Part shown: positions 6,011-39,511 of the stretch, in pieces
Position numbering within the stretch: position 1 is the first letter of the stretch
How the letters are laid out: every line of letters starts with the position of its first letter
Assembly: GCA_964368945.1 (NCBI GenBank)
Contig: CAYJDM010000002.1
Span: 85,386-149,385 of the forward strand
Source of the DNA: an uncultured Candidatus Saccharibacteria bacterium
GTDB taxonomy: Bacteria; Patescibacteriota; Minisyncoccia; Phycocordibacterales; CAIZLB01
Direction of reading: 5' to 3'
DNA length: 64,000 bases
The notes under the pieces: generated by a model
Database searches by the model: none
What the model was told of the DNA's origin: nothing
Seen by the model: only the letters and a program-made list of their open reading frames with translations
Made by a program: the position numbers and the translations under genes

Positions 6011-7765
6011 ATGTTCATCGAATCATCCCAATTGCGAGATGCCTTGCTCGAGGCCAAGATCGTTTCTGAAAAAGATTTCGACAAGGCCTTTGCCGAAGCG
6101 GAAGAAAAGCAGAAAGAAGTCGGCGAAATTCTCATCTCCGGAGGAAAGATTTCCGACGATGATTATCGCCGCATTCTCGCTCATGTTCTCGGCGTGCCAT
6201 TCATCGATCTCAAGCCGATGAAATTGGAATTCGAAGTCCTCTCTCTCATCCCTGAGCCGATCGCGCGCAATCACAATATCGTCGCATATGCGAAGAAGGA
6301 GGATTCGCTCGAAGTCGCTATGCTCGACACTGATGATTTGTCAGCTATAGATTTTGTCAAAAAGAAAACCGGCATGCGCATCCTGCCTCGGCTGACGAAT
6401 GCCGAGTCGATGAAGTCCGCGCTCATCCAGTACCAAAAGACCTTGAAGGCGGATTTCGGAGACATCATCCAGCAGGAAGCATCGAATCTCAAGATGCTCG
6501 CATCAGAAGAAGGGAAGGAGGCGAGCGGAGAGGATCTCAAGAAGCTCGCGGAAGATCTGCCAGTTATTCGAATCGTCGATACTTTGCTGAAGCATGCAGC
6601 GCTTCAGGATGCATCCGATATTCATATCGAGCAAAGCGAGAACGAAGTGATCGTGCGATATCGAATCGATGGAATGCTCCACGATGCCATGGTCTTGCCA
6701 AAGAATGCCGGATCCAGCATCACTGCTCGAATAAAGGTTTTATCAAATCTCAAGCTCGATGAAAAGCGGCTTCCACAGGATGGCCGATTCAAGATCGAGC
6801 TCAATGGAGAAAAGATCTCATTCCGAGTTTCCATTTTGCCTACATATTATGGAGAAAAAACCGTAATGCGATTATTGCGCGAAACGGTTTCTGGATTCAC
6901 GCTTGAGAAGCTGGGCTTTCATGGACGCAATCTCGAAGTCATTCATGAGGCGACGAATCTATCCGATGGCTTGATTCTGACGACAGGGCCTACCGGTTCA
7001 GGAAAGACGACGACGCTCTATACTGTTCTCGATATCGTCAATCAGCCCGACGTGAATATCTCTACGGTAGAGGATCCGGTGGAGTATCAGATGAAGCGCG
7101 TCAATCAGACTCAGGTAAAGCCCGAGATCGGATTCACATTCGCATCAGGATTGCGATCATTGCTTCGACAGGATCCGGATATCATTATGGTGGGAGAAAT
7201 CCGAGACAATGAGACTGCTGCCCTTGCGATCAATGCCGCTTTGACGGGTCACTTGGTGCTTTCCACTTTGCATACGAACTCGGCAGCCGGCGCGATCCCG
7301 CGATTGATCGATATGAAATGCGAGCCCTTCCTCCTCGTTTCTACTTTGCGCGTCATCATCGCTCAGCGCTTGGTCCGACGATTGCATAAGGCTCAGAATC
7401 CCGCGCCTCTTACAAAAGAGGAATATGAGGCGATTGCCAAGCATGTCGATATGGACAAGGTGCTCGATGCTCTCCAGACGGAAGGCATAGTTGAAAAAAA
7501 CGCCACATGGAAGACGGTTCCGTTCTATAAGCCCGTTCCTGATGCCGAAAGTCCCGATGGATACAAGAGCCGAATCGGAATTCATGAGGCGCTCAAGATC
7601 TCTCCAGCGATTCGAGAAATGGTTATCAAGGGCGAAACCAGCGATGCCATCGAAAAGCAGGCGCGATCTGAAGGCATGCTTACCATGATCGAGGATGGCG
7701 TCTTCAAATGCGCGCAGGGAATGACGACGCTCGAGGAAATCCTCCGAGTTGTCAGCGTCGAATAG
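6011..7765 (+). CDS. pilB: Type IV pilus assembly ATPase PilB (GspE family).
   Basis: An N-terminal T2SE_N domain, Walker A (LTTGPTGSGKTTTLY), Walker B and Asp/His boxes, and a tetracysteine-less C-domain. Confidence 0.85.
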   Translation: MFIESSQLRDALLEAKIVSEKDFDKAFAEAEEKQKEVGEILISGGKISDDDYRRILAHVLGVPFIDLKPMKLEFEVLSLIPEPIARNHNIVAYAKKEDSLEVAMLDTDDLSAIDFVKKKTGMRILPRLTNAESMKSALIQYQKTLKADFGDIIQQEASNLKMLASEEGKEASGEDLKKLAEDLPVIRIVDTLLKHAALQDASDIHIEQSENEVIVRYRIDGMLHDAMVLPKNAGSSITARIKVLSNLKLDEKRLPQDGRFKIELNGEKISFRVSILPTYYGEKTVMRLLRETVSGFTLEKLGFHGRNLEVIHEATNLSDGLILTTGPTGSGKTTTLYTVLDIVNQPDVNISTVEDPVEYQMKRVNQTQVKPEIGFTFASGLRSLLRQDPDIIMVGEIRDNETAALAINAALTGHLVLSTLHTNSAAGAIPRLIDMKCEPFLLVSTLRVIIAQRLVRRLHKAQNPAPLTKEEYEAIAKHVDMDKVLDALQTEGIVEKNATWKTVPFYKPVPDAESPDGYKSRIGIHEALKISPAIREMVIKGETSDAIEKQARSEGMLTMIEDGVFKCAQGMTTLEEILRVVSVE

Positions 7766-7769
7766 AAAA

Positions 7770-8972
7770 ATGAAATACGCATACACAGCCATTAACAAGG
7801 AAGGCATGAAATATACCGCGACGCTCGAGGCGGCGGATAAGTCTGTTTTCTATGCCGAATTCAAGAAGATCGGCGATGTGCTCGTGACCGTAAAGGAAGC
7901 GAAAAAGAAAGGGAGCATCGATATCAATTTCATGCGCCGCATAAAGACGCTCGACAAGATCACCTTTGCGCGAAATATCGCAAATATGCTCGAGGCCGGC
8001 CTTTCGCTTTCGCGCTCTATCAGTGTAATCGAGCGCCAGAGCACGAATCCAAAGATGGAAGAAGTCTGCCGTTCCTTGAATGCTTCGATCGCGGCCGGCA
8101 AAAGCTTCAATGAATCGCTCGCGGCGCGACCGAAGGTTTTCTCAAAATTATTCGTCTCGATGGTAAAGGCAGGAGAGGAATCGGGAAACCTCAATGAATC
8201 TCTCAAGCATGTATCGTCGCAGATGGAAAAAAGCTATCTCCTCAAGAAGAAGGTGAAGGGAGCGATGATGTATCCATCGGTGATCATGGGCGTGATGGTT
8301 TTGATCGCCATCCTCATGATGATCTATGTCGTGCCCGCTTTGACAAAGACATTCGCGGACCTCAAGGTTACATTGCCAGCATCGACCAAATTCGTGCTCG
8401 GCATGAGCTCATTCATTCAGAATCATTTCGTGCTCGGCTTCATCGGCCTGCTCGTCTTTATCGCCGCCTTTTTCTATGCGCTCAAGACAAGGATAGGAAA
8501 GAGAATCTTCGATGCATTCACTCTCAGGATTCCCGTCGTCGGCACGATTCTCAAGGAAACCAATTCGGCATATACGACGCGAACGCTCGCCTCGCTGCTT
8601 TCCGCTGGCGTGGATCTCCTACAGGCTGTGCGAATCACGCAGGATGTATTGCAGAATTCATATTATAAAGACGTATTGCTCAAAACAGAGAAGGTCGTCG
8701 AGAAGGGAGGCACGCTATCCTCGGTCTTTACTGAGGAAAAGAAGCTCTATCCGGTCTTCGTAGCCGAAATGATCAGCGTAGGAGAGGAGACTGGAAAGTT
8801 GGCATCCATGCTTATGGGCGTCGCGACATTCTATGAGAATGAGGTGGAACAGAAGACCAAGGACCTCTCTACCATCATCGAGCCTTTCCTTATGGTAATC
8901 ATCGGCGCCAGCGTGGGATTCTTTGCGGTATCGATGATCACGCCTATGTATTCGGTAATGAATAATTTGTAA
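7770..8972 (+). CDS. pilC: Type IV pilus inner-membrane platform protein PilC (GspF family).
   Basis: Two GspF repeats and three TM segments. The ATG at 7770 lies 4 nt after the pilB stop. The table ORF begins at an upstream TTG. Confidence 0.85.
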   Translation: MKYAYTAINKEGMKYTATLEAADKSVFYAEFKKIGDVLVTVKEAKKKGSIDINFMRRIKTLDKITFARNIANMLEAGLSLSRSISVIERQSTNPKMEEVCRSLNASIAAGKSFNESLAARPKVFSKLFVSMVKAGEESGNLNESLKHVSSQMEKSYLLKKKVKGAMMYPSVIMGVMVLIAILMMIYVVPALTKTFADLKVTLPASTKFVLGMSSFIQNHFVLGFIGLLVFIAAFFYALKTRIGKRIFDAFTLRIPVVGTILKETNSAYTTRTLASLLSAGVDLLQAVRITQDVLQNSYYKDVLLKTEKVVEKGGTLSSVFTEEKKLYPVFVAEMISVGEETGKLASMLMGVATFYENEVEQKTKDLSTIIEPFLMVIIGASVGFFAVSMITPMYSVMNNL

Positions 8973-9020
8973 AAAAATCCAGGGTCGGAGAACTGGATCG
9001 GACCAAGGCAAATATACAAT

Positions 9021-9512
9021 ATGAAATTTTCATCAATAAAAAAGCAGGCAAAATCGGCAACAAAGCGAGGATTCACCCTCGTGGAAATGCTCGTCGTCCT
9101 GGTTCTCCTCGGCGTCGTATTTCAGATCTCCATCACGGCATTCTTTGCGATCACGAAGCAGCAGAATCTGGATAAGGATGTAGAAAACGCCTATTCATAT
9201 CTCCTCAAGGCTCGCAATCAGACATTGAATGGCGAGGCGAATAGCGTATATGGCGTTCGCTTTGCTACGACATCCGTCTCGCTATTCAAGGGGCCGACAT
9301 ACAATACCGCAAGCACCACTTCGGTATATTCATTCGTAAACAAATCATATGTCAGCACGATTTCGCTAACGGGAGGAACATACGATGTGATCTTCAGCAG
9401 GATATCGGGAAATCCATCGGCGACCGGAACCGTGATGTATAAAATCGGATCTCTTTCCACAGTTCAGAAAACGATAATCATACATGGCAGCGGTTTGGTT
9501 GAGGTACAATAG
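9021..9512 (+). CDS. Prepilin-type N-terminal cleavage/methylation pilin.
   Basis: Class III signal peptide KRGFTLVEMLVVL (G|FTLxE), followed by a hydrophobic helix. Confidence 0.7.
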   Translation: MKFSSIKKQAKSATKRGFTLVEMLVVLVLLGVVFQISITAFFAITKQQNLDKDVENAYSYLLKARNQTLNGEANSVYGVRFATTSVSLFKGPTYNTASTTSVYSFVNKSYVSTISLTGGTYDVIFSRISGNPSATGTVMYKIGSLSTVQKTIIIHGSGLVEVQ

Positions 9513-9522
9513 TGATATAGAA

Positions 9523-10026
9523 ATGAAAACAATTGATAAAAAAAACAAGGCAGCCAATATCGGGCAGCGAGGATCTGGAATGATCGAGATCCTCATTGCT
9601 GCTGCTCTCATGGGCGTAATCCTCATCGCCGTCATCAATGTCTATTCCTCTCTGACCGCGCTCTCTCTCCAGAATACCGACAAGATCCAGTCAACGTTCC
9701 TTCTCGAAGAGGGCGTTGAGGCGATCCGGACGATGCGAGATGCGAGCTGGTCCAATATTTCCAATATGACGGTTGGTCAGACATATTATCTGCGCTTCCA
9801 GAGCGGTGCATGGCTGGCAACGACGACGCCTCAGATCGTCGATGACTTCTGGAGAACCGCGACTGTCAGCAATGTCAGCCGGGATGGAAGCTTTAATATA
9901 GTATCGAGCGGAGGGACGGTTGATGCCAATACCCGAAAGGTCCAGATATCGGTTGCATGGGAGGTCAAAACAGGGACAACTACTAGGTCTGTCGATACCT
10001 ATATCTTTAATACATTCGGCAATTAG
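9523..10026 (+). CDS. Pseudopilin / minor pilin.
   Basis: N-terminal RGSGMIEILIAAAL, with E at +5 after the cleavage Gly. Start placed at ATG 9523, after the upstream stop. Confidence 0.6.
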   Translation: MKTIDKKNKAANIGQRGSGMIEILIAAALMGVILIAVINVYSSLTALSLQNTDKIQSTFLLEEGVEAIRTMRDASWSNISNMTVGQTYYLRFQSGAWLATTTPQIVDDFWRTATVSNVSRDGSFNIVSSGGTVDANTRKVQISVAWEVKTGTTTRSVDTYIFNTFGN

Positions 10027-10052
10027 CAGGCGGCCCAGAAATTTTTATCCAT

Positions 10053-10601
10053 ATGAAAAAAATCGCAAAGCTCAATAAGGGAATGACCGTAGTGGAGGTG
10101 CTTATCTACCTCTCGATTCTCGTGGTAATGCTTGCTGCCATCACCCAGTCAGTTCTCCTCCTCACGACGCATTATCGCGCGGTTCGAAATACAAGGGATA
10201 TCGAGGATTCAGCAATCGCCGTCATGGACAGAGTCGTGCGAACCGCGAGAGGCGCAGACGATATCGTCATGACTTCAGCGTATGGATCATCGACTCCTTC
10301 CGGCACGGATCCGAGCACCGTGAGCTTTATAACCAATGATTCCTCAACGGGGCTTTCCACTACAACCATGTTCACTGTCGATCAATCGACGCGAAAGATC
10401 CTCCTCTACGAAAACGGCGTATATCTTGGTCCTTTGACGAAGGAAAGCGTGCTCGTCATCGGATTCAAGATCAATCACATTATCAGCGCGAATTCCAAGG
10501 CCATTCGAATCGAGCTCAGCCTCCTTTCTGATCAGGCGACGCCGGCGGTCATCTCGAAGAACTTCTACGATACCGTCGTCTTGCGAGGCACATATCGATA
10601 A
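10053..10601 (+). CDS. Pseudopilin / minor pilin.
   Basis: Prepilin motif KGMTVVEVLIYL. Confidence 0.7.
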   Translation: MKKIAKLNKGMTVVEVLIYLSILVVMLAAITQSVLLLTTHYRAVRNTRDIEDSAIAVMDRVVRTARGADDIVMTSAYGSSTPSGTDPSTVSFITNDSSTGLSTTTMFTVDQSTRKILLYENGVYLGPLTKESVLVIGFKINHIISANSKAIRIELSLLSDQATPAVISKNFYDTVVLRGTYR

Positions 10602-10605
10602 TCTT

Positions 10606-12393
10606 ATGAAAAAAAACACATATAGCATCAATAGGCAGAGCGGACAGGTCGTAATGGCCGCCGTGCTGGTATTCATGTCGCTCTCCCTCGTCGTCGTCAT
10701 CGGCATCTCTGCGCCAATCGCAGCGCAGATCAGGAATACTGCAATCGCCCTCGAGACTCGAAAGGCCGTCGCTACTGCCGAAGTGCTCAATGACGATGCT
10801 CTCTACAGGCTCTATGCCGGAAGGACCCTTCCTTCGACCATCGTCCTCGCACTCAATGAATCGACATCCACGGCGATTGTCTCAGACGTAGGGACGATGA
10901 AGCAGATAATCTCAACATCCGTTTCAAGGCAGACGACGCGCACGACCCAGGCTCGATTCAATGCTGGCGGGAGTGCCGCTCCGATTAGCTATGCTTTGCA
11001 TACCGGACAAGGCGGATTTCAGCTGACAGGAGGCGCGCGAGTGAATGGGAATATCTATTCCAATGGAAGCGTCGTCGGCTATGGCGGCGGAAACGTCGTC
11101 GGGAGCGTGACAGCCGCTTCTTCATTGAACGAGACGATAATCACCGATAATACGAATATTGCCGGACTCGTTGGCGGCGTCGATGTCGGAAAGGTGAATG
11201 ATGTGCAGCAGTTGGGACAGAGCTTTACGGTTTCGACATCCACGGCCATTACGACTTTTTCTTTATATATAAAAAAGACCGGCTCTCCCGCCAATGGAAC
11301 ATTGCGCATCTATAATGCCAGCGGAGCCAATGTGGGGACCACTCAGGTCGGCTCAAACGGAGCCTTGTCGGCGGCATCCGTATCTACTGCTTATCAGTGG
11401 GTAGATGTGTATCCGTATGCGCCCATCACCCTTGTTCCCAGCACTACATATTGGATGACATTGGAAGTCCAGGGAAGCAGCGCCTCGAACTACTATACGC
11501 TAGGAATGAATAACAGCGTGTATTCGGCAGGATCCCTCAAGACCAGAGTAAAGACAGGATCGACATGGGCTGGGTACGTCAATGCTTCTCCTGCCACGAG
11601 AGATTTGCTTTTCAGCGCATCGATCGGCGGAGTGACTTTCATTTCTGGAAACAACTGGGATAAATTCAGCATATCTGGCTCCGCGAATGCCGGAACCGTA
11701 AATAGCACCGATGCCGGCGGCCTAATCTATTGCCAGAATGGAAATATGAATAATAAGGCTTGCGATACGAGCATGCCTATTCCCACTTCGGTAGATTTGC
11801 CGATTCAGCAGGATCGCATCAATACTTGGAAGACTCAGGCTTCTGCGGGAACAGTGCGAAATACAAGCTGGACGATCGGCGGCGGAGTCTCTACGAGCAC
11901 TCCGGGCGCTATGAGGATCAATGGCGATCTGACGGTGTCTGGCGGCGCATCGCTTACATTGAATGGGCCTTTGTACGTTACGGGAACGATTACGGTGAGC
12001 GGGGGCACGACGGTGCGGCTGGCTCCCGGATATTCTTCGACTGATGAATTCGTAGTCGCGAACTATGTGCGCCTTACTGGCGGAGGGCAGATTACGGGCA
12101 GCGGCACGGCTGGCAGCTATGTGATAGTCGCCGTCGAAGGAGCCGATTGTCCTTCATCATGCAGCGGTTCGACATATGCCGCCACTACGGATGGAGGAAC
12201 CGCTTCTATGGTTCTCGTCGCTCCGAATGGAACATTGCGAGTTACCGGCGGCGCTGCTCTCAAGGCGGCTATGGCAAAGACGATAATCATGGACGGAGGC
12301 TCAAGCCTGACATATGAAGCCGCCCTTTCGGGCATCACCTTCTCAACCAGCGGCTCCGCAGCCTGGAGCGTCGATAGCTGGAGAGAGATATGA
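10606..12393 (+). CDS. Large PilX-like pilus-associated protein (possible tip or minor pilin).
   Basis: A PilX_N-like hydrophobic N-terminus (GQVVMAAVLVFMSLSLVVVIG) with a Gly/Thr/Ser-rich beta-rich body. It is the last gene of the pilin block. Confidence 0.5.
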   Translation: MKKNTYSINRQSGQVVMAAVLVFMSLSLVVVIGISAPIAAQIRNTAIALETRKAVATAEVLNDDALYRLYAGRTLPSTIVLALNESTSTAIVSDVGTMKQIISTSVSRQTTRTTQARFNAGGSAAPISYALHTGQGGFQLTGGARVNGNIYSNGSVVGYGGGNVVGSVTAASSLNETIITDNTNIAGLVGGVDVGKVNDVQQLGQSFTVSTSTAITTFSLYIKKTGSPANGTLRIYNASGANVGTTQVGSNGALSAASVSTAYQWVDVYPYAPITLVPSTTYWMTLEVQGSSASNYYTLGMNNSVYSAGSLKTRVKTGSTWAGYVNASPATRDLLFSASIGGVTFISGNNWDKFSISGSANAGTVNSTDAGGLIYCQNGNMNNKACDTSMPIPTSVDLPIQQDRINTWKTQASAGTVRNTSWTIGGGVSTSTPGAMRINGDLTVSGGASLTLNGPLYVTGTITVSGGTTVRLAPGYSSTDEFVVANYVRLTGGGQITGSGTAGSYVIVAVEGADCPSSCSGSTYAATTDGGTASMVLVAPNGTLRVTGGAALKAAMAKTIIMDGGSSLTYEAALSGITFSTSGSAAWSVDSWREI

Positions 12394-15358: not shown

Positions 15359-17317
15359 ATGGTTAAGGCCTCCTTCAAGCTCAAAGACTGTCCGGCCGGC
15401 ATCGTGCACAATCCTGACGGCGATCTTTTGGAGCGATTGCTTGCAGTACGCGGAATTACCGACGCGGGGCGGGCGTTATTCCTGCAGCCTGATTTCGAGA
15501 CCGGTCTGCACGATCCTTTTCTCCTGAAGGATATGGATCGGACTGTCGACCGCATTATCAAGGCGATGAAGAATGATGAGCATATCCTGATCTATTCCGA
15601 CTATGACGCGGACGGATTGCCAGGCGCATCGATTTTCCATGATTTCTTCCGGACTGCCGGCTACCCGCATGTAAGTTTCTTTCAGCCCGATCGCCATGTC
15701 GATGGATTCGGCCTGCATGCGCATATCCTGGATGAATATTTGGGCAAAACAGGCGATGGAGTCGAGGCGGTCGATGCGGCTGGATTCCCAATTGCGCCCG
15801 CGACTTTGATGATTACGATCGATTGCGGCATTGCCGATGTTGAACCTGTGCGGATCTTGTCTGCACGATCAAATGAGCCCGGCCGAAAGCCGCTCGATAT
15901 CATCATCACGGATCATCATTTGCCAGGGCCCGTTCTGCCGGATGCATTTGCAATCGTCAATCCGAAGCGCGCCGACTGCGAATATCCTGAGAAGATGCTT
16001 TGCGGCTCAGGCGTCGCTTACAAAATCATCTGCGCTCTGGTCTCGCGCATGGATGCGGAAAAGGTCGCGAACAATGCGGCGAATAGCGAATCAAAGCCCG
16101 GCGTTTTTCCGATTGGATATACGAAGTGGCTGCTCGATCTCGTCGGTATTGCCACGATGTCGGATATGGTTCCGCTTAGGGGAGAGAATCGCCTTCTCGC
16201 ATATTATGGATTGATGGTCTTGAGGAAAACCCGCCGACCCGGAATCCTCTCATTGTGCAGGACGAATATGCTCGAGCCGAAGAATATCGTCGAGGATGAT
16301 ATTGCTTTCACGATCGCGCCGCGCATCAATGTGGCATCCCGCCTCGCGCATCCGCGCATGGCATTCGATTTGCTTACGGCGACATCGTTCGATGGCGCAA
16401 TGCGCATAGCAAAGGATTTGAACAATATAAACAATAGGCGAAAAACCATGGTCGCTCAGATCATGAAGCAGGCCCATGCAAAGGTTCGCGAATCGAAACT
16501 CAATCAGGATCCCGTTCTCGTCATAGGCAATCCAGACTGGAAGCCGCCCGTTCTCGGACTCGTCGCGACTCAGCTCATCAAGGCCTATGGCCGACCGACA
16601 TTCGTATGGGGCCGCGACGATAGCGGAGCATATAAGGGCTCGGCTCGTTCCACTCCCGATATCGATATCGTGCAGCTAATGTATACCGTGCCAGATGAAG
16701 TTTTCATCAACAAAGGCGGACATGCTCAATCCGGCGGATTCTGCGTGCACCCTGATCATATCTTCGATTTCGACAATGCGATGCAGACCGCGTTCGCAAA
16801 GATCTATGGAGCGAAAGTTGAAACTGGCATTAATGCCGAAGTGGAAGGAGGCGATGCGTCGAACGAACTCGGACGTAACGTCCAGGTTTCTTCTACGCAT
16901 GGTAAGGTCTGTCACCTCGTTGATGCGATCATAAGCGTGAACGATATCAATCCGCGCACTTTCGCCATGATCGAGAAGCTTTCCCCCTACGGTGTCGGCA
17001 ATGAGAAGCCGCTCTTTGCGATTACGGATTTTCATATTAAAAACGCCCGACTCTTCGGCAAGACGGGCGAGCATCTCGAGCTCGAGCATGGCGACTGGGA
17101 TAATGGCCAGGTAAAGGCGATCCAATTTTTTTATACTGAAGGAAGCTCTAAAAGCGGCTCAAAAAAGCCCGAAGATATAACGAGCCTGGATGATCTCAAG
17201 CAAGATCCGCTCCTGGCCCTCAAGCAAAATACCCACAAGGCCATCATCGGCTGCATCGAAAAGAATCAATTTCGCGGCGCGAATGAGATCCGGCTCAGAA
17301 TTATTGATATGGTTTAG
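15359..17317 (+). CDS. recJ: Single-stranded-DNA-specific exonuclease RecJ (DHH/DHHA1).
   Basis: DHH motifs (IYSDYDADG, ITDHH), a DHHA1 domain and a C-terminal OB-like region. Confidence 0.8.
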   Translation: MVKASFKLKDCPAGIVHNPDGDLLERLLAVRGITDAGRALFLQPDFETGLHDPFLLKDMDRTVDRIIKAMKNDEHILIYSDYDADGLPGASIFHDFFRTAGYPHVSFFQPDRHVDGFGLHAHILDEYLGKTGDGVEAVDAAGFPIAPATLMITIDCGIADVEPVRILSARSNEPGRKPLDIIITDHHLPGPVLPDAFAIVNPKRADCEYPEKMLCGSGVAYKIICALVSRMDAEKVANNAANSESKPGVFPIGYTKWLLDLVGIATMSDMVPLRGENRLLAYYGLMVLRKTRRPGILSLCRTNMLEPKNIVEDDIAFTIAPRINVASRLAHPRMAFDLLTATSFDGAMRIAKDLNNINNRRKTMVAQIMKQAHAKVRESKLNQDPVLVIGNPDWKPPVLGLVATQLIKAYGRPTFVWGRDDSGAYKGSARSTPDIDIVQLMYTVPDEVFINKGGHAQSGGFCVHPDHIFDFDNAMQTAFAKIYGAKVETGINAEVEGGDASNELGRNVQVSSTHGKVCHLVDAIISVNDINPRTFAMIEKLSPYGVGNEKPLFAITDFHIKNARLFGKTGEHLELEHGDWDNGQVKAIQFFYTEGSSKSGSKKPEDITSLDDLKQDPLLALKQNTHKAIIGCIEKNQFRGANEIRLRIIDMV

Positions 17318-17655: not shown

Positions 17656-18480
17656 ATGAATACACCATCTGCTGGCATCGTGACCATCTATACCGACGGC
17701 TCTTCTCGGGGCAATCCGGGGCCTGGAGGCTATGGCGCTGTCTGCATCTATCCGAATTCGCATGCAAAGGATGGACTTGCCATGTTCGCGCGCGAACTCG
17801 GAGGGCGGGAAGCCGAAACGACCAATAACCGCATGGAAATCATGGCGGCGATCAAGGGCCTCGAATTGATGCAGGGCTTTTATTCGCCGGAGCATGAGAT
17901 GGAGATCCACCTGCACTCTGATTCGGCGTATATGCTGCAAGGAATCGAGAAGTGGATCCATGGATGGAAAAAGAATAATTGGATCACATCGACAAAGGAG
18001 GCAGTCAAGAATGAGGATTTATGGCGTGCGCTCGATTCCGTTATCGAGACTTTGCATAAGGAGGGCGTCGAGGTTGTTTGGCATAAGGTCAAAGGCCATG
18101 CCGGTCATGTCGGCAATGAGCGATGCGATGAGATAGCCACGAGCTTCGCGGACAATGATAAGGAAGCGATGGCAAGCCTCTATGATGGACCGATCAGTGG
18201 CTATGACTTGGCGAGCGATATTTTGAATAAAAACATTTTGGGCGGAGGTTCTGCGACTGGGCAAGGTGCGACATCAACATCCAGCGGCAAGTCGAAATCG
18301 AAATCGTCCAACAAGGGCAAGCCAGCGTATTCATATGTAAGCTATGTCGATGGCGACCTCCGAATCGACAAGACATGGGCTGAATGCGAGAGCCGCGTCA
18401 AAGGCAAAAGTGGCGCGAAATTCAAGAAGGCTTTGTCGGCTTCAGATGAGGCTGAGATCTCAAAAGAATTTACCGGCTAG
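17656..18480 (+). CDS. rnhA: Ribonuclease HI with a C-terminal hybrid-binding-domain (HBD)-like extension.
   Basis: An RNase H fold with DGS..GYG, E (RMEIMAA) and the D..HAG catalytic residues. The C-terminal YSYVSYVDG...TWAECESRVKGKSGAKFKKALSASDEAE segment matches the RNase H1 HBD pattern W-x-EC...V.G..GA.FKKF...EA. Confidence 0.8.
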   Translation: MNTPSAGIVTIYTDGSSRGNPGPGGYGAVCIYPNSHAKDGLAMFARELGGREAETTNNRMEIMAAIKGLELMQGFYSPEHEMEIHLHSDSAYMLQGIEKWIHGWKKNNWITSTKEAVKNEDLWRALDSVIETLHKEGVEVVWHKVKGHAGHVGNERCDEIATSFADNDKEAMASLYDGPISGYDLASDILNKNILGGGSATGQGATSTSSGKSKSKSSNKGKPAYSYVSYVDGDLRIDKTWAECESRVKGKSGAKFKKALSASDEAEISKEFTG

Positions 18481-18569: not shown

Positions 18570-20069
18570 ATGAATGGAAAATTCATGAGGGTGTTTTTTG
18601 TATCGATCGGCCTTGTCGGGACATATGCATTTAGACTGCATCAATTCCCAAAAGACGATGAAGTGCTGAGCCGTCTCGAAATATCGCCGGCTCCAGCATA
18701 CCGTGCTCGCATCGTCGATGAGCCGGATTCATCGATGTATGGCATTCGTGCCCGCGCCAAGATTGTGGCAGCATGCGATCATGTCGATGTCGCTGAATCA
18801 TGCGCGAAGATCGAGTCTGGTACTTTCGTTCAGATCTCATATTCGGAAAAGGCACTAGACCAGAAAGTGGAAGCGGGCGATCAGGTCTGGCTCACCGGAT
18901 CAGTCAAAAGGATGTCATTTCCGGAAGGCGAAGAATCGCTCGAGAATTTTTTCAAAAAACAAAAGATATTCTATGAGATCAAAAGCGCAAAAATCAGCCA
19001 TATCGAAAAACCTCCTTCGCTTAAAAGGCAACTCATTCGATTCAGGAAATCAATCGAAAAATCAATTGCAGATGCCTTGCCTCGACCCGATTCAGATTTG
19101 GCACAAGGCCTCGTCGTATCAGGAAAGGGAAGCATGTCAAAAGAACTGCTTGAAAAGTTCAAGCGAGTCGGATTGATCCATATCGTCGTATTATCAGGAT
19201 CCAACGTGTCTATCATAGCGGCCGCATTGATGTCTGCCTTGAGATTTTTGCCGCGCTTCATCGGTGGCGTAATTGGCCTGTTCGGGATGTCATTGTTTGC
19301 GTTGATGACGGGTGCGGCACCACCCGTTGTCAGATCAGTTCTGATGTCATCAATTCCGCTGGTTATTCCACTTTTCTATTTGCCGCGTCGTGGCTCAATC
19401 GATATCATCGTCGACTCAGGCGACCCTGATACTGTGAATAATAATCCTGCTGCAAAACGCGCGCAATTGACAGGCATTCAACTTCTGTGTCTTACCGGAT
19501 ATGTCATGTGTCTTTTTAATCCGCTCTACCTTCTGTACGATATTTCATTCCAGCTCAGCTTTATGGCAACGCTCGGACTTGTCCTATATACCGAGCCGAT
19601 CGCCAAGCGTTTGGCTTTTATTCCTGCCCGTTTCGGCTTGCGTGAGATCATAGCATCATCGCTTGGCACGCAGATTTTGGTCATGCCGCTTCTTTTGGAA
19701 ATAGGCGGAAGCATGTCGACTGTATTTCTTTTTGCCAATATCCTGGTGCTTCCATTGCTCCCTTTTGCCATGTTGTGCATATTCCTTACCTCGTTGTCGA
19801 GTTTCATTTTGCCCGCAGCTACGCATATCACCGGGCTTGTTTCATGGATTTTTATGGAATGGATATTGAGGGTAACGGATCTATTCTCTGGCTTTTCATT
19901 CGCTTCAGTCCATCTGATCGATATGGATAAAAAGGAGGTGCTCGTCTATTACTCAGTAGTTCTCTCGGCTACATGGGTTCTGTTCGCTGTCGCAAAGAGG
20001 CGGCGACTTAGGTTGGAGCTTCGTGCGGAATCGGTGCGAAACATAAGAACGAACAATGCCCCGGGCTAG
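18570..20069 (+). CDS. comEC: ComEC/Rec2 DNA-uptake channel, comprising the N-terminal OB (DUF4131) domain and the competence TM domain. The MBL domain is absent from this ORF.
   Basis: Signature GLIHIVVLSGSNVSIIAAAL (competence domain), plus multiple TM helices. Confidence 0.75.
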   Translation: MNGKFMRVFFVSIGLVGTYAFRLHQFPKDDEVLSRLEISPAPAYRARIVDEPDSSMYGIRARAKIVAACDHVDVAESCAKIESGTFVQISYSEKALDQKVEAGDQVWLTGSVKRMSFPEGEESLENFFKKQKIFYEIKSAKISHIEKPPSLKRQLIRFRKSIEKSIADALPRPDSDLAQGLVVSGKGSMSKELLEKFKRVGLIHIVVLSGSNVSIIAAALMSALRFLPRFIGGVIGLFGMSLFALMTGAAPPVVRSVLMSSIPLVIPLFYLPRRGSIDIIVDSGDPDTVNNNPAAKRAQLTGIQLLCLTGYVMCLFNPLYLLYDISFQLSFMATLGLVLYTEPIAKRLAFIPARFGLREIIASSLGTQILVMPLLLEIGGSMSTVFLFANILVLPLLPFAMLCIFLTSLSSFILPAATHITGLVSWIFMEWILRVTDLFSGFSFASVHLIDMDKKEVLVYYSVVLSATWVLFAVAKRRRLRLELRAESVRNIRTNNAPG

Positions 20070-20154
20070 CAGGGCATTGATTTCCTTGGTTCGATCTTGC
20101 GCCATCGGTCCCTTCGCAGGTCCCATACATGACAAAAGGTAGGACTGCGTGAAA

Positions 20155-20757
20155 CTACGCTGTGTATCGCTGTTCGACTACGGATGTATTGAGGTTGGCG
20201 AAGAATGCCTCGACGTATTTCTTCTTCTCGCTTGGCGCATAGTCGAGCATATATGAATGCTCCCACATGTCCAAAGCAAGGATGACCTTGAGGCCTGTCA
20301 GATGTCCTAGATGCTGCTCATCGATCCATGCATGAACGAGCTTGTCCGATGTCTGGTCATGATAAAGGATTGCCCAGCCGAGTCCTCGAGTCATTGCGAG
20401 CGCCTTGAATCTTTCGAGCCATGCATCAGTCGATCCCCAAGTCTCTGAAATCTTGGCAGCAAGCGCGCTATCAGAATTCCAGGCCTTTGCGCCGCCTTCA
20501 AGCTGTTCGAAATAATATTCGTGATTTCGCATGCCGTCGAATTCGAATCCGAATCGTCGCTGAAGCTCTCCGATCGTATATGCATTCTTCGCGGCTTCGT
20601 CAGGAGTCGCCGAAAGCTCGCTGACCTTTTCGAGGATCAGATTCGAATGCTTCACATAGCCTGCATAAAGCTTGAGGTGCTCTTCGATCGTCTTCGTCGA
20701 GATTCCTGGCAATTCAGGAAGTTCGAATTTCTTTTCCGTATACATAGATTGAGTCAT
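20155..20757 (-). CDS. sodA: Fe/Mn superoxide dismutase.
   Basis: DMWEHSYMLDY (DxWEHAYY motif). The metal-ligand His and Asp residues are in place. Confidence 0.85.
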   Translation of the reverse strand: MTQSMYTEKKFELPELPGISTKTIEEHLKLYAGYVKHSNLILEKVSELSATPDEAAKNAYTIGELQRRFGFEFDGMRNHEYYFEQLEGGAKAWNSDSALAAKISETWGSTDAWLERFKALAMTRGLGWAILYHDQTSDKLVHAWIDEQHLGHLTGLKVILALDMWEHSYMLDYAPSEKKKYVEAFFANLNTSVVEQRYTA

Positions 20758-20822
20758 GAATTGATATTAAATAATTGTAATTAAAATCACATTAACACAC
20801 ATTAGCACTGGTCACTTAACGA

Positions 20823-21998
20823 TTGAACATAATGCGCATATTGTCAAAATTAGTATATCACCGAATCATGCCTGGCTTGATTTTGATAGGATCGGCATTC
20901 ATGTTTTTCCAAATGCTCGGATTCATTTCCGAATACGCAGAGCTCGCACGCCGGCGCGAAATGAAAGTCAGCGAATTGATCATGGCAGATGTGGGTCAGG
21001 GCGATGGATTTATGATAAAAATCTGGAACGGCAATGTCATATTCGTTGATGTCGGAGAGTTTGCCGAAAAGTTCAAAACTGCGATTCGCAAGCCTTCGAT
21101 TCAGAACTTTGGAAAAAGGGAATCGATTCATTCAGATCTGATTTTCCTTTCTCATGATGATGCGGATCATGCCGAAGCTCTTGATGGGGTTTGGAAAGAT
21201 ATCGGCGGACATGTCGGAGCTATCGCGCTTTCAGGATATCGATATACATATGTCGATAAACTCAAAGAAAAAAATCCAAAAGCAAGGACGGTGAATGTTG
21301 CGGCCGGCGACTTGCTCACATTCTCGACAGGCGATTCGATCAAGATTATTTTCCCAAGAAATAATGCGAACGACACGAACGAAACCAGCAAAGAGTTGGA
21401 AAGATCTGCTAACGATGACTCGCTCGTCATGAAAACGACCGTTGGCTCGACATCGATTTTATTCACTGGTGACGCATCAGAAGTGGTGGAAAGAGAATTG
21501 ATCAAATCATCCGACTCGATTCAGCACGCCGGAAAACTCAAGGAACTCAAGACCGATATATTGAAAGTCGGACATCATGGATCCAAGACATCGTCCAGCG
21601 AAGATTTTATCAAAATGACAAATCCAAAAATTGCGCTCATATCCGTCGGAAAGAATAATCGATATAAGCATCCTACGGTCGAGGCTTTGCAAAGACTGGC
21701 TCAAAATGGCCGAGACATAATTCGCACTGATCAATGCGGCACATATCGAATCGTGCTTTTTGAAAATGGAGCGATCGGGCGAAGACATTGCGCTGCTTCT
21801 GATGCCGTCATTCAGGTCAAGTCTGCCAAGGCGACAAGCACTAAAAAGACATCGACAAAAAAAGCGACAACGACCAAGAAAATAAAGAAGCCAGCAACCC
21901 CAAAAAAGTCTGAGTCAGAACCAAAACCAAGGTCAAAGCCGAAAAAGAAAAAACCGACTCCATCTAAGGAATCGGCTTCTTCCAGTTCATCCGGATAG
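20823..21998 (+). CDS. ComEC-type metallo-beta-lactamase domain protein, with one N-terminal TM helix and a Lys/Thr/Pro-rich C-terminal tail.
   Basis: DVGQGDG, HDDADH and VGHHGSK motifs typical of the ComEC C-terminal MBL domain. Tail: KKTSTKKATTTKKIKKPATPKK... Confidence 0.7.
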   Translation: MNIMRILSKLVYHRIMPGLILIGSAFMFFQMLGFISEYAELARRREMKVSELIMADVGQGDGFMIKIWNGNVIFVDVGEFAEKFKTAIRKPSIQNFGKRESIHSDLIFLSHDDADHAEALDGVWKDIGGHVGAIALSGYRYTYVDKLKEKNPKARTVNVAAGDLLTFSTGDSIKIIFPRNNANDTNETSKELERSANDDSLVMKTTVGSTSILFTGDASEVVERELIKSSDSIQHAGKLKELKTDILKVGHHGSKTSSSEDFIKMTNPKIALISVGKNNRYKHPTVEALQRLAQNGRDIIRTDQCGTYRIVLFENGAIGRRHCAASDAVIQVKSAKATSTKKTSTKKATTTKKIKKPATPKKSESEPKPRSKPKKKKPTPSKESASSSSSG

Positions 21999-24733: not shown

Positions 24734-27700
24734 ATGTCAAAGTTCATTATCTCTACACTCGTTGCATTGCTCGGCATCATCCAGGCATTCGTACCTGCGA
24801 GCGCATTCGCGGCTGCAAAGACGATTGAGGAAATCGGATTGACTCCGAACGATGTAAAGAATCTCACGAAGGACCAGATTCAGGGTCTCTTGGATTCAGC
24901 AACGGTAACGTATGTCGATGGCAAGGAGCCGGCGGCTGATGCGGCGACTCCTCTTCTCCCGAATACGGTTAATTGCTTCGATAACTATTCCTTCGGAAGC
25001 GTTCAGGCAAACCTCGTGCCATCGGTAAGCAGCGCGGTTTCTGGATCGCAGATCACATTCTCCGGAAATATAGTGAATGGCAATGCATATCCGGTAGTGA
25101 ACGGAACCCTTGTCGTGAAGATATTCAAGGCGGCCGGCAATGGCCAGAAGAATATCGATGCGGATGATGTCGTGGATGAATTCAATGCGGTAACGAATGT
25201 GAATCTTCCTGCAAACGGAACATTGCCAGTAAGCGTGGATTGGAAAATTCCCGCATTCTTGGATTCTGGATCATACAAGGCAGTCACATTCTTCGTCGTT
25301 GCGGGAAAGTTCAATCTCCTCGGACTGACTTTCACTGATGACATTGTCGGCAACACCGCTGATTTCTCTGTCACGGGCGAAACCGGCGCGGTTCGATTCG
25401 ACAAGAGCACGGTAAATATGAATGGCGGCAAATTCTACTTCGCAGCATATCCTCCTCGAATCGCAGATGATCAGGTAAAAATCACCGCGACTCTCGTAAA
25501 TACGACATCCGTTGAGCAGACGGTTCCTGTTGCATGGCAGGCATATTCTTGGGATGCACAGCATGAATCCAACTTCATCGAGAGCGATATTCAGACAGTA
25601 AGGGTTCCTGCAAATGGCAAAGTCGAAACAAGCCATACCGTTTCTGATAAGGCGAATTCCGTCTATTATGTGCGCGCAGTCGCTGAATCAAATGGGGTAA
25701 AATCAATCATCGGCACGCGATTCGTTCGGCCTGATGCGAATAAGCTGAGAATCAACTTCCCATCGATTGCGAAATTCCCTCTCGTGAAAGGAGAGAAGAC
25801 GGATATTTTCTCATGCCTACACGCTACGAATGATATGGCTGGACCTGCAGATGGAAAGCTTGTCCTGACGCTCAAGGATAAGGTGGGCAAAGTGATTCAC
25901 TCATATGAATATAAAGGACCGGTAACGAGCAGCATGATGGGGGTCAAAGACAGCTTTGTTCCTGATGCTGATTACGATGAATTGACGCTCAAGGCGGAAT
26001 TGTACCAGGGCGAAGCATTGGTAGATAATGTCGAATTGACATATGACTGCAAAGTCATCGATCCGGCGGCTTGTGCTGACAATGGAATGATCATCAAGAT
26101 CGTGCTTGGCATAATCGCGGCATTGGCAATCGTCTTTATCCTGATACTCGCATTCAAGAGAAAGCCGAAGGTGACTGCTACGAGCGCGGTAATGATGCTG
26201 CTTCTCGCATTCGGCTGGACTGCATTTACGAGCAATACGTCTGCTCAGAATTGGTGGGAGAGCGCGGTATTGCCAGGCGAAGCTCGATGGGAAGGAACCG
26301 CTCCGCGCATGAGCACATCGTGGGGAGGCCAGAGGTCTGAGCTTGAAAATGTCCATATAAAGGTCAGATACAGAACGCAGATCGCAAAAGAATCCGGCGA
26401 GGCATTATTGGGCGGCGAGACATTGACGCCAGGAACAAAGGTTAAGCTCAAAGTGCTTCCGTATGAATCCAATGATATCTACTGGTTCGGTCTGGGAGGA
26501 GTATACGATTCTCCTTTTGGAGAATGGCGAGCCGGATCGACTCCGCCGGCGGCCGGATGTCAGGATAAGGATTATACGAGCTTGGGAATCTCGGGTATTC
26601 CGACCGTGACTTCCGTATATCACAGATATATGTTTTTCGATCTCGTGATGAGTCCTCCGACTGCATCTATCGCGGAAACGCAGAATCTCGATTGCGGCGC
26701 ATTGGTTGGCGGAGTTGCGACATGCAGCGTGGTTGCAGAAGGTCCTGTAAAGGCATCGTTCAAATTCACGCCGACGACTGGAAAATTCTATTATAGCTAT
26801 TTCAATAGAAAGCCATTTGAAGGCCTTGCCAATCCCAAGCCATTGTCTCAGGTTTCTGCAGCAGACAGGGCGGCTTGTTTGGCTCAGACCGAGGAATTTG
26901 GAGGGTATACGGTATCCGTGCCTGAGATTACGAAGCCGTATACGTTCGTTGCCGATGCCGATCCTGAAAACCAGCCGCCGACAGTTCCCGTTGTTACGGG
27001 TACGGGTTGGGCGAAACCTGGCCAATCATATTCATTCAGCTCGGTTTCGACAGATCCAGACGGCGATCAGATACGATATGCAGTTGATTTCGACAGCAAT
27101 GGAATTACGGATACCTCGCTTCCTGGAAGCGGCTATGTAAGCAGCGGCGCGGCGATGTCGACATCAAAGTCATGGGCAGCGCTCGGAACATATACGATCA
27201 AGGTTAAGGCAGAGGATACGCCAGGAGGGCTATCTTCGGGCTGGGCTACTCATCAGGTAATAGTAAGCGAAGAGGATCCATTCAATGGCGTGACTCCTCC
27301 TACGAATAATCCGATCGATGGCAAATGCGTGCCAGGATCAGACGGTTGCAGAACGTCTTGCGGCGATGTCGCTCCGATTGAGCGAGGAAGGACACTAACA
27401 ATTTCAACTCCTGGTCTTTGTAGTGCGGATGCCGTGGCGATGTCTCCCGGGACGACCCTTACTGGCTTTACATGGAAATGCCAGGGAGCATGGCAGACGG
27501 TTCCTCAGAACTGTAATGTAGCTTGCGAAACCGGCATATATTCTCCGATCGCCGGCGCTTGCGCTGATTCGGTGGCCGACTATTGTCCAAATCTAGATGG
27601 AGACCAGACCGATGCAAGCAAATACGATATCGTGAAGGATCCAGCGACTGGGGTAAATCGATGTATGCCAAAGGCTAGCATCAAATACTTCAAGTTCTCT

Positions 27701-27964
27701 CCGGACCAGGCTCTCGAGAATTGTCCGGCATATTGGGATACCGAATTGCCCGATGCATCGCTTAAGTTCAGCACGGTCTGCAAGATAAATGGCGGAGCTA
27801 CCGTTCCGGGAAAGAATCTTCTTCCAGGCGGAGCAGCCACATTCCTGCAGCCGGTAGGCAGACTTCATAGCCTGACATGCGCCATCTCCGACCTTGAAGG
27901 AGTTGCCAAGACCCTCACATCCGTAGCTCGATGCTATAGAATAGGCGAGCAGGTTGAGGATTAG
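24734..27964 (+). CDS. Large (1076 aa) cell-surface protein with a signal peptide, two central TM helices and a PKD-like domain.
   Basis: N-terminal signal peptide. TM pair around aa 460-500 (IIKIVLGIIAALAIVFILILAF / AVMMLLLAFGWTAF). PKD-like segment SVSTDPDGDQIRYAVDFDSNG. Confidence 0.6.
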   Translation: MSKFIISTLVALLGIIQAFVPASAFAAAKTIEEIGLTPNDVKNLTKDQIQGLLDSATVTYVDGKEPAADAATPLLPNTVNCFDNYSFGSVQANLVPSVSSAVSGSQITFSGNIVNGNAYPVVNGTLVVKIFKAAGNGQKNIDADDVVDEFNAVTNVNLPANGTLPVSVDWKIPAFLDSGSYKAVTFFVVAGKFNLLGLTFTDDIVGNTADFSVTGETGAVRFDKSTVNMNGGKFYFAAYPPRIADDQVKITATLVNTTSVEQTVPVAWQAYSWDAQHESNFIESDIQTVRVPANGKVETSHTVSDKANSVYYVRAVAESNGVKSIIGTRFVRPDANKLRINFPSIAKFPLVKGEKTDIFSCLHATNDMAGPADGKLVLTLKDKVGKVIHSYEYKGPVTSSMMGVKDSFVPDADYDELTLKAELYQGEALVDNVELTYDCKVIDPAACADNGMIIKIVLGIIAALAIVFILILAFKRKPKVTATSAVMMLLLAFGWTAFTSNTSAQNWWESAVLPGEARWEGTAPRMSTSWGGQRSELENVHIKVRYRTQIAKESGEALLGGETLTPGTKVKLKVLPYESNDIYWFGLGGVYDSPFGEWRAGSTPPAAGCQDKDYTSLGISGIPTVTSVYHRYMFFDLVMSPPTASIAETQNLDCGALVGGVATCSVVAEGPVKASFKFTPTTGKFYYSYFNRKPFEGLANPKPLSQVSAADRAACLAQTEEFGGYTVSVPEITKPYTFVADADPENQPPTVPVVTGTGWAKPGQSYSFSSVSTDPDGDQIRYAVDFDSNGITDTSLPGSGYVSSGAAMSTSKSWAALGTYTIKVKAEDTPGGLSSGWATHQVIVSEEDPFNGVTPPTNNPIDGKCVPGSDGCRTSCGDVAPIERGRTLTISTPGLCSADAVAMSPGTTLTGFTWKCQGAWQTVPQNCNVACETGIYSPIAGACADSVADYCPNLDGDQTDASKYDIVKDPATGVNRCMPKASIKYFKFSPDQALENCPAYWDTELPDASLKFSTVCKINGGATVPGKNLLPGGAATFLQPVGRLHSLTCAISDLEGVAKTLTSVARCYRIGEQVED

Positions 27965-31840: not shown

Positions 31841-32644
31841 TCAGCCGGGGAGCCCCATGTGGATCTCCTCCAGTGTGCGCTCAACGGCGCCAAGAGGGTC
31901 TCCGTGCTGGAGGATTGGCCTGCCGACGATGATGCGCGAGGCACCTGCAGCGATGGCTTGCTGCGGTCCCATTTTCCGGCCTGTGGCCTGATTGTCGTCC
32001 CTTACGATTGACCATTCGGGGCGAATTGCAGGAGCATTGTATGAGAATCTGTCTCCGAATTTCTCGCGGAGATTCCCGATATCGGTAGCTGCAGAAACCA
32101 GTCCGCCGATGTCTGCCAGTGCGGCTTCTTTGGAAAAGCGCTCGGCTGCTTGTGCGATCGAGCATCCGTACAGTCTTTGGCAGACCTGCTCCGTATGGCT
32201 TGTCAGCACCGTAATGCCGATGATTTCTGTGGCTGGCAATTCGGCCTGAGCTTTTTCCATAGCCTCAGCGCCGGCGGTGCATACGACGGTCAGCAATTCG
32301 GGATCGAATTCGCGCAGGAACTTGCCGTCTGTCGCGAGAGTAGAATCGATATCGTAGAGCTTCAGATCTGCGAAGACCCCGAATCCGAGATCCCGCAAAA
32401 CCTGAAGCAGGTGCGTACCGTTAGCGCGCAGAAGGGAATTCACCTTAAGCGTTATCCCGGTGCCTTTGAGCTTTTTAGCAAAGGCGACCGCTTGTTTCAT
32501 CGCATTATCGGCGCGATCTTCCCTTGTTGTCGGATCGAAGTCGAGTGCGATGACAAGGCGCTCGCTTGGAGTGAGGTCTCTTTTTCTTATGGACATGATT
32601 TTCGGTATGTTGGGTGTTATGGGGCTATGCGGGGCATTCAGCAT
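31841..32644 (-). CDS. pyrF: Orotidine 5'-phosphate decarboxylase.
   Basis: LVIALDF, DLKLYDIDST (DxKxxDIxxT) and the C-terminal IIVGRPI motif. Confidence 0.7.
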   Translation of the reverse strand: MLNAPHSPITPNIPKIMSIRKRDLTPSERLVIALDFDPTTREDRADNAMKQAVAFAKKLKGTGITLKVNSLLRANGTHLLQVLRDLGFGVFADLKLYDIDSTLATDGKFLREFDPELLTVVCTAGAEAMEKAQAELPATEIIGITVLTSHTEQVCQRLYGCSIAQAAERFSKEAALADIGGLVSAATDIGNLREKFGDRFSYNAPAIRPEWSIVRDDNQATGRKMGPQQAIAAGASRIIVGRPILQHGDPLGAVERTLEEIHMGLPG

Positions 32645-39466: not shown

Positions 39467-39511
39467 GACACGGCGACGTCCAACCTCAAGCCCGATTCAA
39501 TCGGCAACACG

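Follow-up and report, generated by a model that had tools for sequence, protein, structure and literature searches.

A separate metallo-beta-lactamase gene near a ComEC channel gene suggests a two-subunit ComEC in bacteria of the candidate phyla radiation

Background

ComEC's C-terminal domain is a Mn-dependent nuclease that is required for efficient transformation (PMC8579336). Almost half of the ComEC proteins lack this domain, and how strand degradation takes place in those cases is an open question (Silale et al. 2021, PMC8579336). A published classification of ComEC proteins considers only those domains that share a polypeptide with the Competence domain (Pimentel and Zhang 2018, PMC6299819), and the absence of the metallo-beta-lactamase (MBL) domain is the rule in bacteria of the candidate phyla radiation (CPR; Meheust et al. 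2019, PMC6744442). In a Saccharibacterium, a different organism from the one considered here, deletion of comEC abolishes transformation (PMC10633639). In Streptococcus pneumoniae, EndA acts as a nuclease in trans, and ComEC's C-terminal domain is probably inactive and perhaps kept as a DNA guide (PMC8579336, PMC12455585). The present analysis concerns the comEC locus at positions 18570 to 21998 of a stretch of 64,000 nucleotides (the window) from an uncultured Candidatus Saccharibacteria bacterium (assembly GCA_964368945.1, contig CAYJDM010000002.1, positions 85,386 to 149,385). This locus contains a ComEC channel gene (open reading frame 1, ORF1) and a separate MBL gene (ORF2), with a probable superoxide dismutase gene (sod) on the opposite strand between them. 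With a probability of about 0.65, the two genes encode a two-subunit ComEC, of which the MBL nuclease acts in trans.

Compared with full-length ComEC/Rec2 of the B. subtilis type (9vc6, 30bt, 9ic4, and 9iew), the locus encodes the same modules in the same order and shares the DxGQGD, HxDxDH, TGD, and GHHGS motifs, the last transmembrane (TM) helix plus MBL domain, and the invariant channel residues. It differs in that ComEC is divided into two polypeptides at the cytoplasmic turn that precedes the last TM helix, that the channel has just one TM helix ahead of the OB domain, and that the halves appear as separate transcription units around sod. ORF1 is exactly an MBL-less ComEC of the 'DC type' of CPR bacteria (PMC6744442, PMC6299819); however, the MBL was scored as absent or lost in those papers, whereas a separate linked gene encodes it here and in most relatives. 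The EndA system of S. pneumoniae likewise has a separate membrane-bound nuclease for the non-transported strand, but the trans nuclease of the window would be the ComEC MBL module itself and not an unrelated enzyme of the EndA type. Stand-alone ComEC-like MBL proteins and Pce (1wra/2bib) belong to the same subfamily and consist of a single domain; they measure about 280-340 aa, and many begin with a TM helix or signal. Unlike ORF2, the stand-alone ComEC-like proteins have no adjoining channel gene, and some of their close relatives carry a fused ComEC (e.g. Veillonellaceae L081).

The automatic annotation of JGI names both genes "competence protein ComEC", the relationship thus being implicit in databases. 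A literature search, of incomplete coverage and amounting to absence of evidence only, returned no explicit description of a separate linked MBL partner of ComEC. As far as found, the MBL-less ComEC of CPR bacteria is already known, and the linked trans MBL, its pairing with sod, and its frequent catalytic death are undescribed. An earlier note on this DNA, made from the sequence alone, had taken the single-polypeptide ComEC as the canonical form, which is not the baseline for CPR bacteria.

Results and discussion

Domain composition of the two halves

An ORF check retrieved the three ORFs, their strands, and the split layout as the earlier note had described them (Table 1), with sod on the minus strand in the 753-bp gap between ORF1 and ORF2. 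A domain scan of the ORFs revealed no second Competence ORF and no second ComEC-type MBL ORF within the 64-kb window. ORF1 matched PF03772 Competence (E 8.6e-40, 137 bits versus a cut-off of 23) and no MBL-superfamily model of Pfam. Its match to TIGR00361 ComEC_Rec2 was partial (best stretch at model positions 88-233, 71.1 bits versus a cut-off of 190.05). In a sequence-profile search of the PDB, the ORF1-family profile matched full-length ComEC 30bt_A over residues 69-488 (E 2e-39) and 9vc6_A over residues 85-509 (E 6e-33), as well as the isolated ComEC OB domain 9iew_A (E 0.002). The AlphaFold2 (AF2) model of ORF1 (pLDDT 83, built on 30 homologues) was the basis for the domain limits of Table 1; after the TM bundle, the protein ends in a basic cytoplasmic tail (KRRRLRL...). 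Although the Pfam model of DUF4131 (PF13567) gave no direct match, ORF1 is alignable over at least 95% of its length to PF13567-bearing CPR homologues, and the beta domain of the model (aa 43-146) yielded weak OB-fold matches in Foldseek. An OB fold ahead of the channel is hence predicted with moderate confidence. Foldseek with the ORF1 model as a whole gave nothing significant, full-length ComEC being probably absent from that structure library. Residues H204, R255, and D324/S326/F327/Q328 (the D-x-SFQLSF motif) are invariant across 30 homologues. All of the best 120 homologues listed lack PF00753; they measure 380-602 aa, most of them 440-540 aa, and the named ones belong to Patescibacteria, Taylorbacteria, or Paceibacterota. 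ORF1 appears to comprise the OB domain and the channel, i.e. the first two ComEC modules only, as had been proposed. In addition, no MBL remnant was found 3' of ORF1 or, in cryptic form, inside it, so that the reading as a split gene stands.

ORF2 matched the remaining part of TIGR00361 (model positions 404-663 of 663, E 2.3e-36, 125.2 bits versus the cut-off of 190.05) and, in Pfam, PF00753 (E 4.6e-09). Its PDB sequence matches below 1e-3 were to ComEC only, the best being residues 541-803 of 9vc6_A (E 3e-21). In the AF2 model (pLDDT 79), a single helix (aa 15-47) covers the TM segment, which is preceded by a cytoplasmic VYHR motif. With this model, Foldseek retrieved 248 MBL structures at E <= 1e-3, headed by the ComEC MBL domain 9ic4 (1e-19) and followed, as the next fold, by the phosphorylcholine esterase Pce (2e-13). 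Both searches thus placed ORF2 closer to the ComEC C-terminus than to stand-alone MBL hydrolases. Hydropathy, the AF2 model, and TIGR00361 agree with the earlier description of a one-TM protein with ComEC-type MBL motifs (DVGQGDG, HDDADH, and GHHGS) and a Lys-rich tail. When 19 stand-alone homologues were aligned, residues D56, H111, D115, H116, D217, H251, and H252 proved invariant; the window protein also has D113 of the HxDxDH motif, which varies among these homologues. ORF2 is therefore predicted, from these motifs and the model, to have the MBL-superfamily fold with motifs I-V (D, HxDxDH, TGD, and HH), and its MBL domain seems to be catalytically intact. Of the aligned homologues, P0002 alone has a basic tail, a short one, and the others lack the Lys-rich extension. 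In the window protein, the tail would be extracellular and strongly basic and might thus interact with DNA or the cell wall. In the public annotation, ORF2 (P0001, 376 aa) begins at ATG 20868. Since the conserved VYH(R/K) of the homologues is encoded upstream of this codon, the start is probably TTG 20823 or ATG 20832.

Colinearity with fused ComEC and position of the break

Iterative profiles of ORF1 and ORF2 were compared with the fused ComEC genes among the matches listed, about 50 in number and from a variety of phyla. In these fused proteins, the ORF1 profile stops (at ORF1 residues ~470-490) where the ORF2 profile starts (at ORF2 residues ~5-25), with no segment left uncovered between both. 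The structures follow the same order, the ORF1 family extending to residue 488 and ORF2 matching from residue 530 in 30bt_A, and to residue 509 and from residue 541, respectively, in 9vc6_A. Fused ComEC proteins have two successive hydrophobic helices right before the MBL domain, separated by a very short basic turn. The last such helix of ORF1 (aa 457-475) is followed by KRRRLRL, and in ORF2 a short basic stretch precedes the other helix. The break coincides with the cytoplasmic turn between the penultimate and the last TM helices of fused ComEC. A cut in this turn would leave both products in their native topology, with the channel C-terminus inside and the MBL domain outside, and the turn is the one place where a cut spares the topology of both. 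Alignment to full-length ComEC, which had been proposed as a check of the domain boundaries, was colinear without loss of a segment, and the two ORFs together make up a complete ComEC with nothing missing. Its modules are distributed over two ORFs instead of one polypeptide, and each half scores under the TIGR00361 cut-off.

Table 1. Coordinates of the ComEC halves, the intervening and neighbouring features of the window, and catalytically dead MBL ORFs of related loci (the latter in the coordinates of their own locus)
Feature	Position	Strand	Basis or remark
ORF1, ComEC channel subunit, 499 aa, without MBL (predicted)	18570-20069	+	Pfam, PDB profile match, AF2
ORF1 TM helix, aa 4-25	18579-18644	+	AF2 model
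ORF1 OB-like beta domain, aa 43-146	18696-19007	+	AF2 model
ORF1 competence TM bundle, aa 151-486	19020-20027	+	AF2 model
ORF2, membrane-anchored ComEC-type MBL nuclease subunit (predicted), 391 aa, TTG start	20823-21998	+	TIGR00361, PDB, AF2/Foldseek
ORF2 TM helix, aa 18-36	20874-20930	+	Kyte-Doolittle hydropathy peak
ORF2 MBL domain, aa 50-325	20970-21797	+	TIGR00361, AF2
ORF2 disordered Lys/Pro/Thr/Ser-rich tail, aa 326-391, 66 aa	21798-21995	+	AF2
sod, probable Fe/Mn superoxide dismutase, 200 aa	20155-20757	-	Sod_Fe_C; convergent with ORF1, head-to-head with ORF2
G+C-rich hairpin CAATGCCC...GGGCATTG, terminator-like	20054-20079	.	Consensus scan; covers ORF1 stop, between convergent ORF1 and sod
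AT-rich divergent spacer between sod and ORF2, 65 bp	20758-20822	.	Start-to-start intergenic region
RecJ	15359-17317	+	Pfam; conserved 5' neighbour of the channel gene
RNase H	17656-18480	+	Pfam; conserved 5' neighbour of the channel gene
Type IV pilus genes (overall)	6011-12393	+	DNA-uptake context
PilB ATPase	6011-7765	+	
PilC platform	7749-8972	+	
Major pilin, G/FTLVE signal	9021-9512	+	
Pilin-like ORFs (two) and a protein of 595 aa	up to 12393	+	Part of the pilus block
Dead MBL ORF, L092	7120-8028		
Dead MBL ORF, L099	5711-6658		
Dead MBL ORF, L107	6398-7315		
Dead MBL ORF, L111	5493-6266		
Dead MBL ORF, L126	7253-8398		
Dead MBL ORF, L129	5924-6766		
Dead MBL ORF, L135	5817-6734		
Dead MBL ORF, L139	5723-6514		
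Dead MBL ORF, L147	5617-6408		
Dead MBL ORF, L158	5590-6525		

Conservation of the split in relatives

The window locus is part of a synteny block of the order TIM-PGK-HIT(-)-RecJ-RNase H-channel-sod(-)-MBL-L28(-)-M50-S12-S7. The part of this block from RecJ to S7 was retrieved in the related loci L001, L002/3, and L173, with MBL proteins 51-59% identical, and in L085, L086, and L087, with MBL proteins 33-39% identical. Contigs that were picked by their channel at 32-35% identity keep the order too, namely L091 (Ca. Taylorbacteria), L092 (Patescibacteria), and a 648-kb JGI contig; Taylorbacteria is a member of the Parcubacteria group. Judged by this synteny and by the named homologues of ORF1, the window genome is of the Parcubacteria type within Patescibacteria. 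An isochorismatase-family gene (7388-7912) separates the MBL gene from L28 in L173, which, with 72% identity in the channel, is the closest relative found; its block is otherwise unchanged.

With the channel profile as seed, a scan of metagenomes yielded 80 loci, 68 of which had sufficient downstream DNA to be assessed; Hainich groundwater was among the sources of related contigs. A fused comEC was found in 0 of the 80 loci. The order channel-sod(-)-MBL occurred in 41 of the 68 assessable loci and the same order with an extra gene between channel and sod in another 10 (together 51/68), whereas a channel and MBL separated by another gene only (1/68) or directly adjacent (3/68) were rare. The channel was followed by sod and then by the end of the contig or no detectable MBL in 5/68 loci, and there was no MBL in the available downstream DNA in 8/68. 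Overall, an MBL gene was present within ~3 kb downstream of the channel in 55 of the 68 loci.

Fused and split forms were surveyed further by a genome-contig scan with the MBL alignment, which gave at least 600 matches, dominated by generic motifs and, for those listed, of ~30% identity. Among the matches listed, channel and MBL genes are directly adjacent or have a few bases in common in Magasanikbacteria, Saccharibacteria, Minisyncoccia, and Giovannonibacteria, and other genes are located between them in Yanofskybacteria and one Saccharibacterium. The non-CPR genomes among these matches mostly carry a fused ComEC of 730-890 aa, and stand-alone ComEC-like MBL genes without an adjoining channel gene occur in Firmicutes (Veillonella and Clostridia) and archaea. 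In a neighbour-joining tree of the MBL domains, built without support values, the CPR MBL proteins group together, apart from the stand-alone ones of Firmicutes and archaea. The window subclade is attached by a long branch at the midpoint root; the tree does not decide between fission and a pre-fusion state. The question of fused versus split forms in relatives, raised in the earlier note, is thus answered by a split throughout, and the two-gene layout is old, stable, and clade-wide rather than peculiar to the window genome. Two single cases were seen in other phyla. A metagenome-assembled genome (MAG) of Armatimonadota (non-CPR) contains a ComEC split at the CPR junction (L022:6347-8810). In a Bacteroidetes MAG (L032:6431-8906), the split is inside the competence domain, which suggests a frameshift or a misassembly.

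Catalytically dead MBL partners

The 55 MBL ORFs that are head-to-head with sod in the collected loci were scored for their metal ligands. About 19-22 of them have kept these ligands, and every metal ligand has been lost in about 33. In the dead proteins (Table 1), DVGQGD is replaced by x-L-x-x-G-R-S, HxDxDH by T-N-T-D-G-K-N or P-S-A-T-P-A-Q, and GHHGS by x-S-H-S-A-x, and the YGHP loop is deleted. They retain the TM anchor and a mutually conserved scaffold (PFYSRRID, ILFP, SxPE, and IQK), and they resemble selected pseudo-enzymes rather than pseudogenes. The window copy and its subclade (L001, L002, L085-L087, L093-L095, and L173) have intact catalytic motifs. The conservation of dead MBL proteins at the same locus argues for a role of the MBL partner beyond catalysis, and a structural subunit fits their retention better than a free scavenging nuclease does. 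A structural role would explain why a conserved dead MBL partner is present in more than half of the sampled lineages. These proteins resemble the C-terminal domain of S. pneumoniae ComEC, which has been proposed to be an inactive DNA guide (PMC8579336). As a tentative extension, to which we give clearly less than even odds, ComEC of a large Parcubacteria clade may be a stable heteromer with a structural, non-catalytic MBL, for instance as an extracellular DNA-entry vestibule or a strand guide, the pairing with sod may reflect shared regulation, and the two-gene state may perhaps be the pre-fusion ancestor.

A two-subunit model and its alternatives

In the two-subunit model, ORF1 would be the DNA channel, with an N-terminal TM helix, an extracellular OB-like DNA-binding domain, a TM bundle, and a basic cytoplasmic tail. 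ORF2 would start in the cytoplasm, cross the membrane once, and expose the MBL nuclease and its basic disordered tail outside. Both products would insert independently and reassemble by helix packing in the membrane, whereby the ORF2 TM helix would pack on the channel bundle at the position of the last TM helix of fused ComEC. This packing would put the nuclease at the channel mouth beside the OB domain. Acting in trans, it would there degrade the strand that is not transported, as the other one enters through the channel. The type IV pilus, encoded ~6 kb upstream, would deliver the DNA. The sod gene is probably an old insertion that became fixed in a large Parcubacteria clade, and it is closely paired, head-to-head, with the MBL gene. 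We infer the nuclease activity, the role in DNA uptake, the transcription pattern, and the physical association of the subunits, the latter from the anatomy of the predicted proteins. Roughly half of the ComEC proteins are scored as nuclease-less, and the locus suggests an answer for the CPR bacteria among them, namely a nuclease on a separate membrane-anchored polypeptide, which escapes domain-profile surveys of ComEC. CPR bacteria are thought to depend on DNA uptake, and the competence scoring of their genomes would change. Moreover, the split ComEC constitutes a natural cis-versus-trans experiment for the ComEC nuclease, and a structural function that the MBL module may have could be approached through the dead relatives.

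Several observations weigh against this model. Firstly, the synteny block also holds unrelated housekeeping genes (HIT, L28, M50, S12, and S7), so that the linkage may reflect a slowly rearranging core and not selection for co-location. Secondly, the MBL gene is tied more tightly to sod (at most ~300 bp) than to the channel gene (10 loci with insertions), and the halves are presumably not co-transcribed, given sod on the opposite strand. Thirdly, the stand-alone ComEC-like MBL proteins without a channel in Firmicutes and archaea indicate that the family can evidently work alone. Lastly, the ComEC nuclease performs better in vitro when the OB fold belongs to the same polypeptide (PMC12455585).

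The strongest alternative, which we consider unlikely but not negligible, is that ORF2 works on its own as an extracellular phosphodiesterase or nuclease anchored in the membrane, descended from or related to the ComEC C-terminus without being a channel subunit. Its task might be nucleotide scavenging or, as for Pce, the remodelling of surface polymers. The second-best structural match being this teichoic-acid phosphorylcholine esterase would fit such a function, but ComEC C-terminal domains are the best matches in both sequence and structure by wide margins, and the N-terminal TM helix of ORF2 corresponds to the last TM helix of fused ComEC. Similarly, independence would agree with the common occurrence of stand-alone ComEC-like MBL proteins in other phyla (Veillonella, Clostridia, and archaea), with the tighter linkage to sod and lack of co-transcription with the channel, and with the 8 of 68 loci without an MBL in the available DNA downstream of the channel; however, the two genes abut in several independent CPR lineages and are within ~3 kb in 55 of those loci. 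In addition, a scavenger with a purely enzymatic function would not easily explain why dead versions are retained.

The sod product matched Sod_Fe_C, in line with the earlier assignment (E 3.5e-21, 75.6 bits versus a cut-off of 20.9), and Sod_Fe_N with 24.2 bits, slightly under the cut-off of 27 bits; the NCBIfam superoxide dismutase models gave E values of 1e-10 to 3e-21, all far under their cut-offs. All four metal ligands (H27, H79, D163, and H167) are present by inspection, and the protein is probably a divergent but real superoxide dismutase. As sod is on the opposite strand, the ComEC halves would be separate transcription units. The head-to-head spacing of sod and MBL had an estimated range of -14 to 298 bp in 55 related loci, with a median of ~60 bp, and the pair persists in the 10 loci with an extra gene between channel and sod. 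The divergent spacer of the window has a core (TTGATATTAA.TAAT...ATTAAAA.CA.AT) in common with L173 and L001 and might serve as a promoter or operator, and the hairpin over the ORF1 stop might serve as a terminator. However, terminator-like sites in the region (7 versus 4.4 +/- 2.0 in shuffles) were not above chance, and a consensus promoter scan of the region gave counts no higher than those of shuffles. No promoter is claimed, because the consensus counts for promoters and terminators do not exceed those of shuffles. A Fur-box-like appearance of the L002 intergenic region was rejected, a chance resemblance being likely in such an AT-rich sequence. An Rfam scan of the window gave zero matches.

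Superoxide dismutases can be Mn-dependent. It could be, although we regard this as quite improbable, that sod and the MBL gene are the real functional unit, co-regulated in response to metal or oxidative stress through their shared divergent region, with a merely historical link to the channel. The ComEC C-terminal domain depends on Mn as well (PMC8579336), and the short spacing of the pair, which survives insertions between channel and sod, together with the common AT-rich core, would agree with such a unit. Nevertheless, no regulator or operator was identified, the promoter scan was no better than shuffles, and other CPR lineages carry channel and MBL without sod. A tight divergent pair may also persist since insertions would break two promoters, and co-regulation would be compatible with the two-subunit model. 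Finally, the earlier note had set a functional two-component ComEC, which the data support, beside a domain-level disruption, in which sod insertion broke a fused comEC and one or both halves decay; the latter was rejected and has hardly any probability left, as nothing specific to the window favours it apart from the many MBL copies of relatives without catalytic residues, whereas both ORFs are full-length with invariant functional residues including the metal ligands, the layout is kept down to ~30% identity in dozens of lineages, the dead MBL proteins are conserved among themselves, and the break point spares the topology.

Neighbouring genes and other observations

The DNA-uptake gene set of the window genome looks intact rather than damaged. 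The pilus genes that had been described as lying next to the comEC locus are present, including PilB, PilC, and pilins, but the block does not adjoin the locus, as it ends ~6 kb upstream of ORF1, and TIM, PGK, HIT, RecJ, and RNase H intervene. None of PilD, PilT, and PilMNO turned up among the window ORFs scanned. A 1054-aa protein (55016-58180) has weak matches to T4SS-DNA_transf, TraG-D_C, and DUF87 (type IV secretion coupling-protein and HerA-type ATPase domains) and is possibly part of the type IV secretion system described in Patescibacteria (PMC12102498). The start listed for a P-type ATPase ORF (57895-60705) falls within the ORF of this protein.

In the RNase H encoded upstream of ORF1, the catalytic domain is N-terminal (aa 9-163) and is followed by a low-complexity linker and a weak match to the RNase H1 hybrid-binding domain (Cauli_VI; aa 239-258, E 9e-4), which is the reverse of the usual order. 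Two ribosomal protein operons contain additional genes. In the str operon, a secreted-looking protein of 1076 aa with a weak PKD match is encoded between rpsG and fusA (24734-27964), and a large ORF occupies the same position in L001 (1075 aa), L086 (1107 aa), and L087 (997 aa). Likewise, the S10 operon contains two non-ribosomal ORFs (38768-41995) between rplB (37562-38404) and rplV (42641-43093), one of 232 aa with a PEP-CTERM-like C-terminus and one of 705 aa without a Pfam match. Lastly, pyrF (OMP decarboxylase) was found in the window at 31841-32644 on the minus strand, and L092:1-1618 encodes dihydroorotate dehydrogenase and dihydroorotase. This suggests that the window clade keeps part of the pyrimidine synthesis, which bears on the idea that DNA uptake by CPR bacteria mainly serves nucleotide scavenging.

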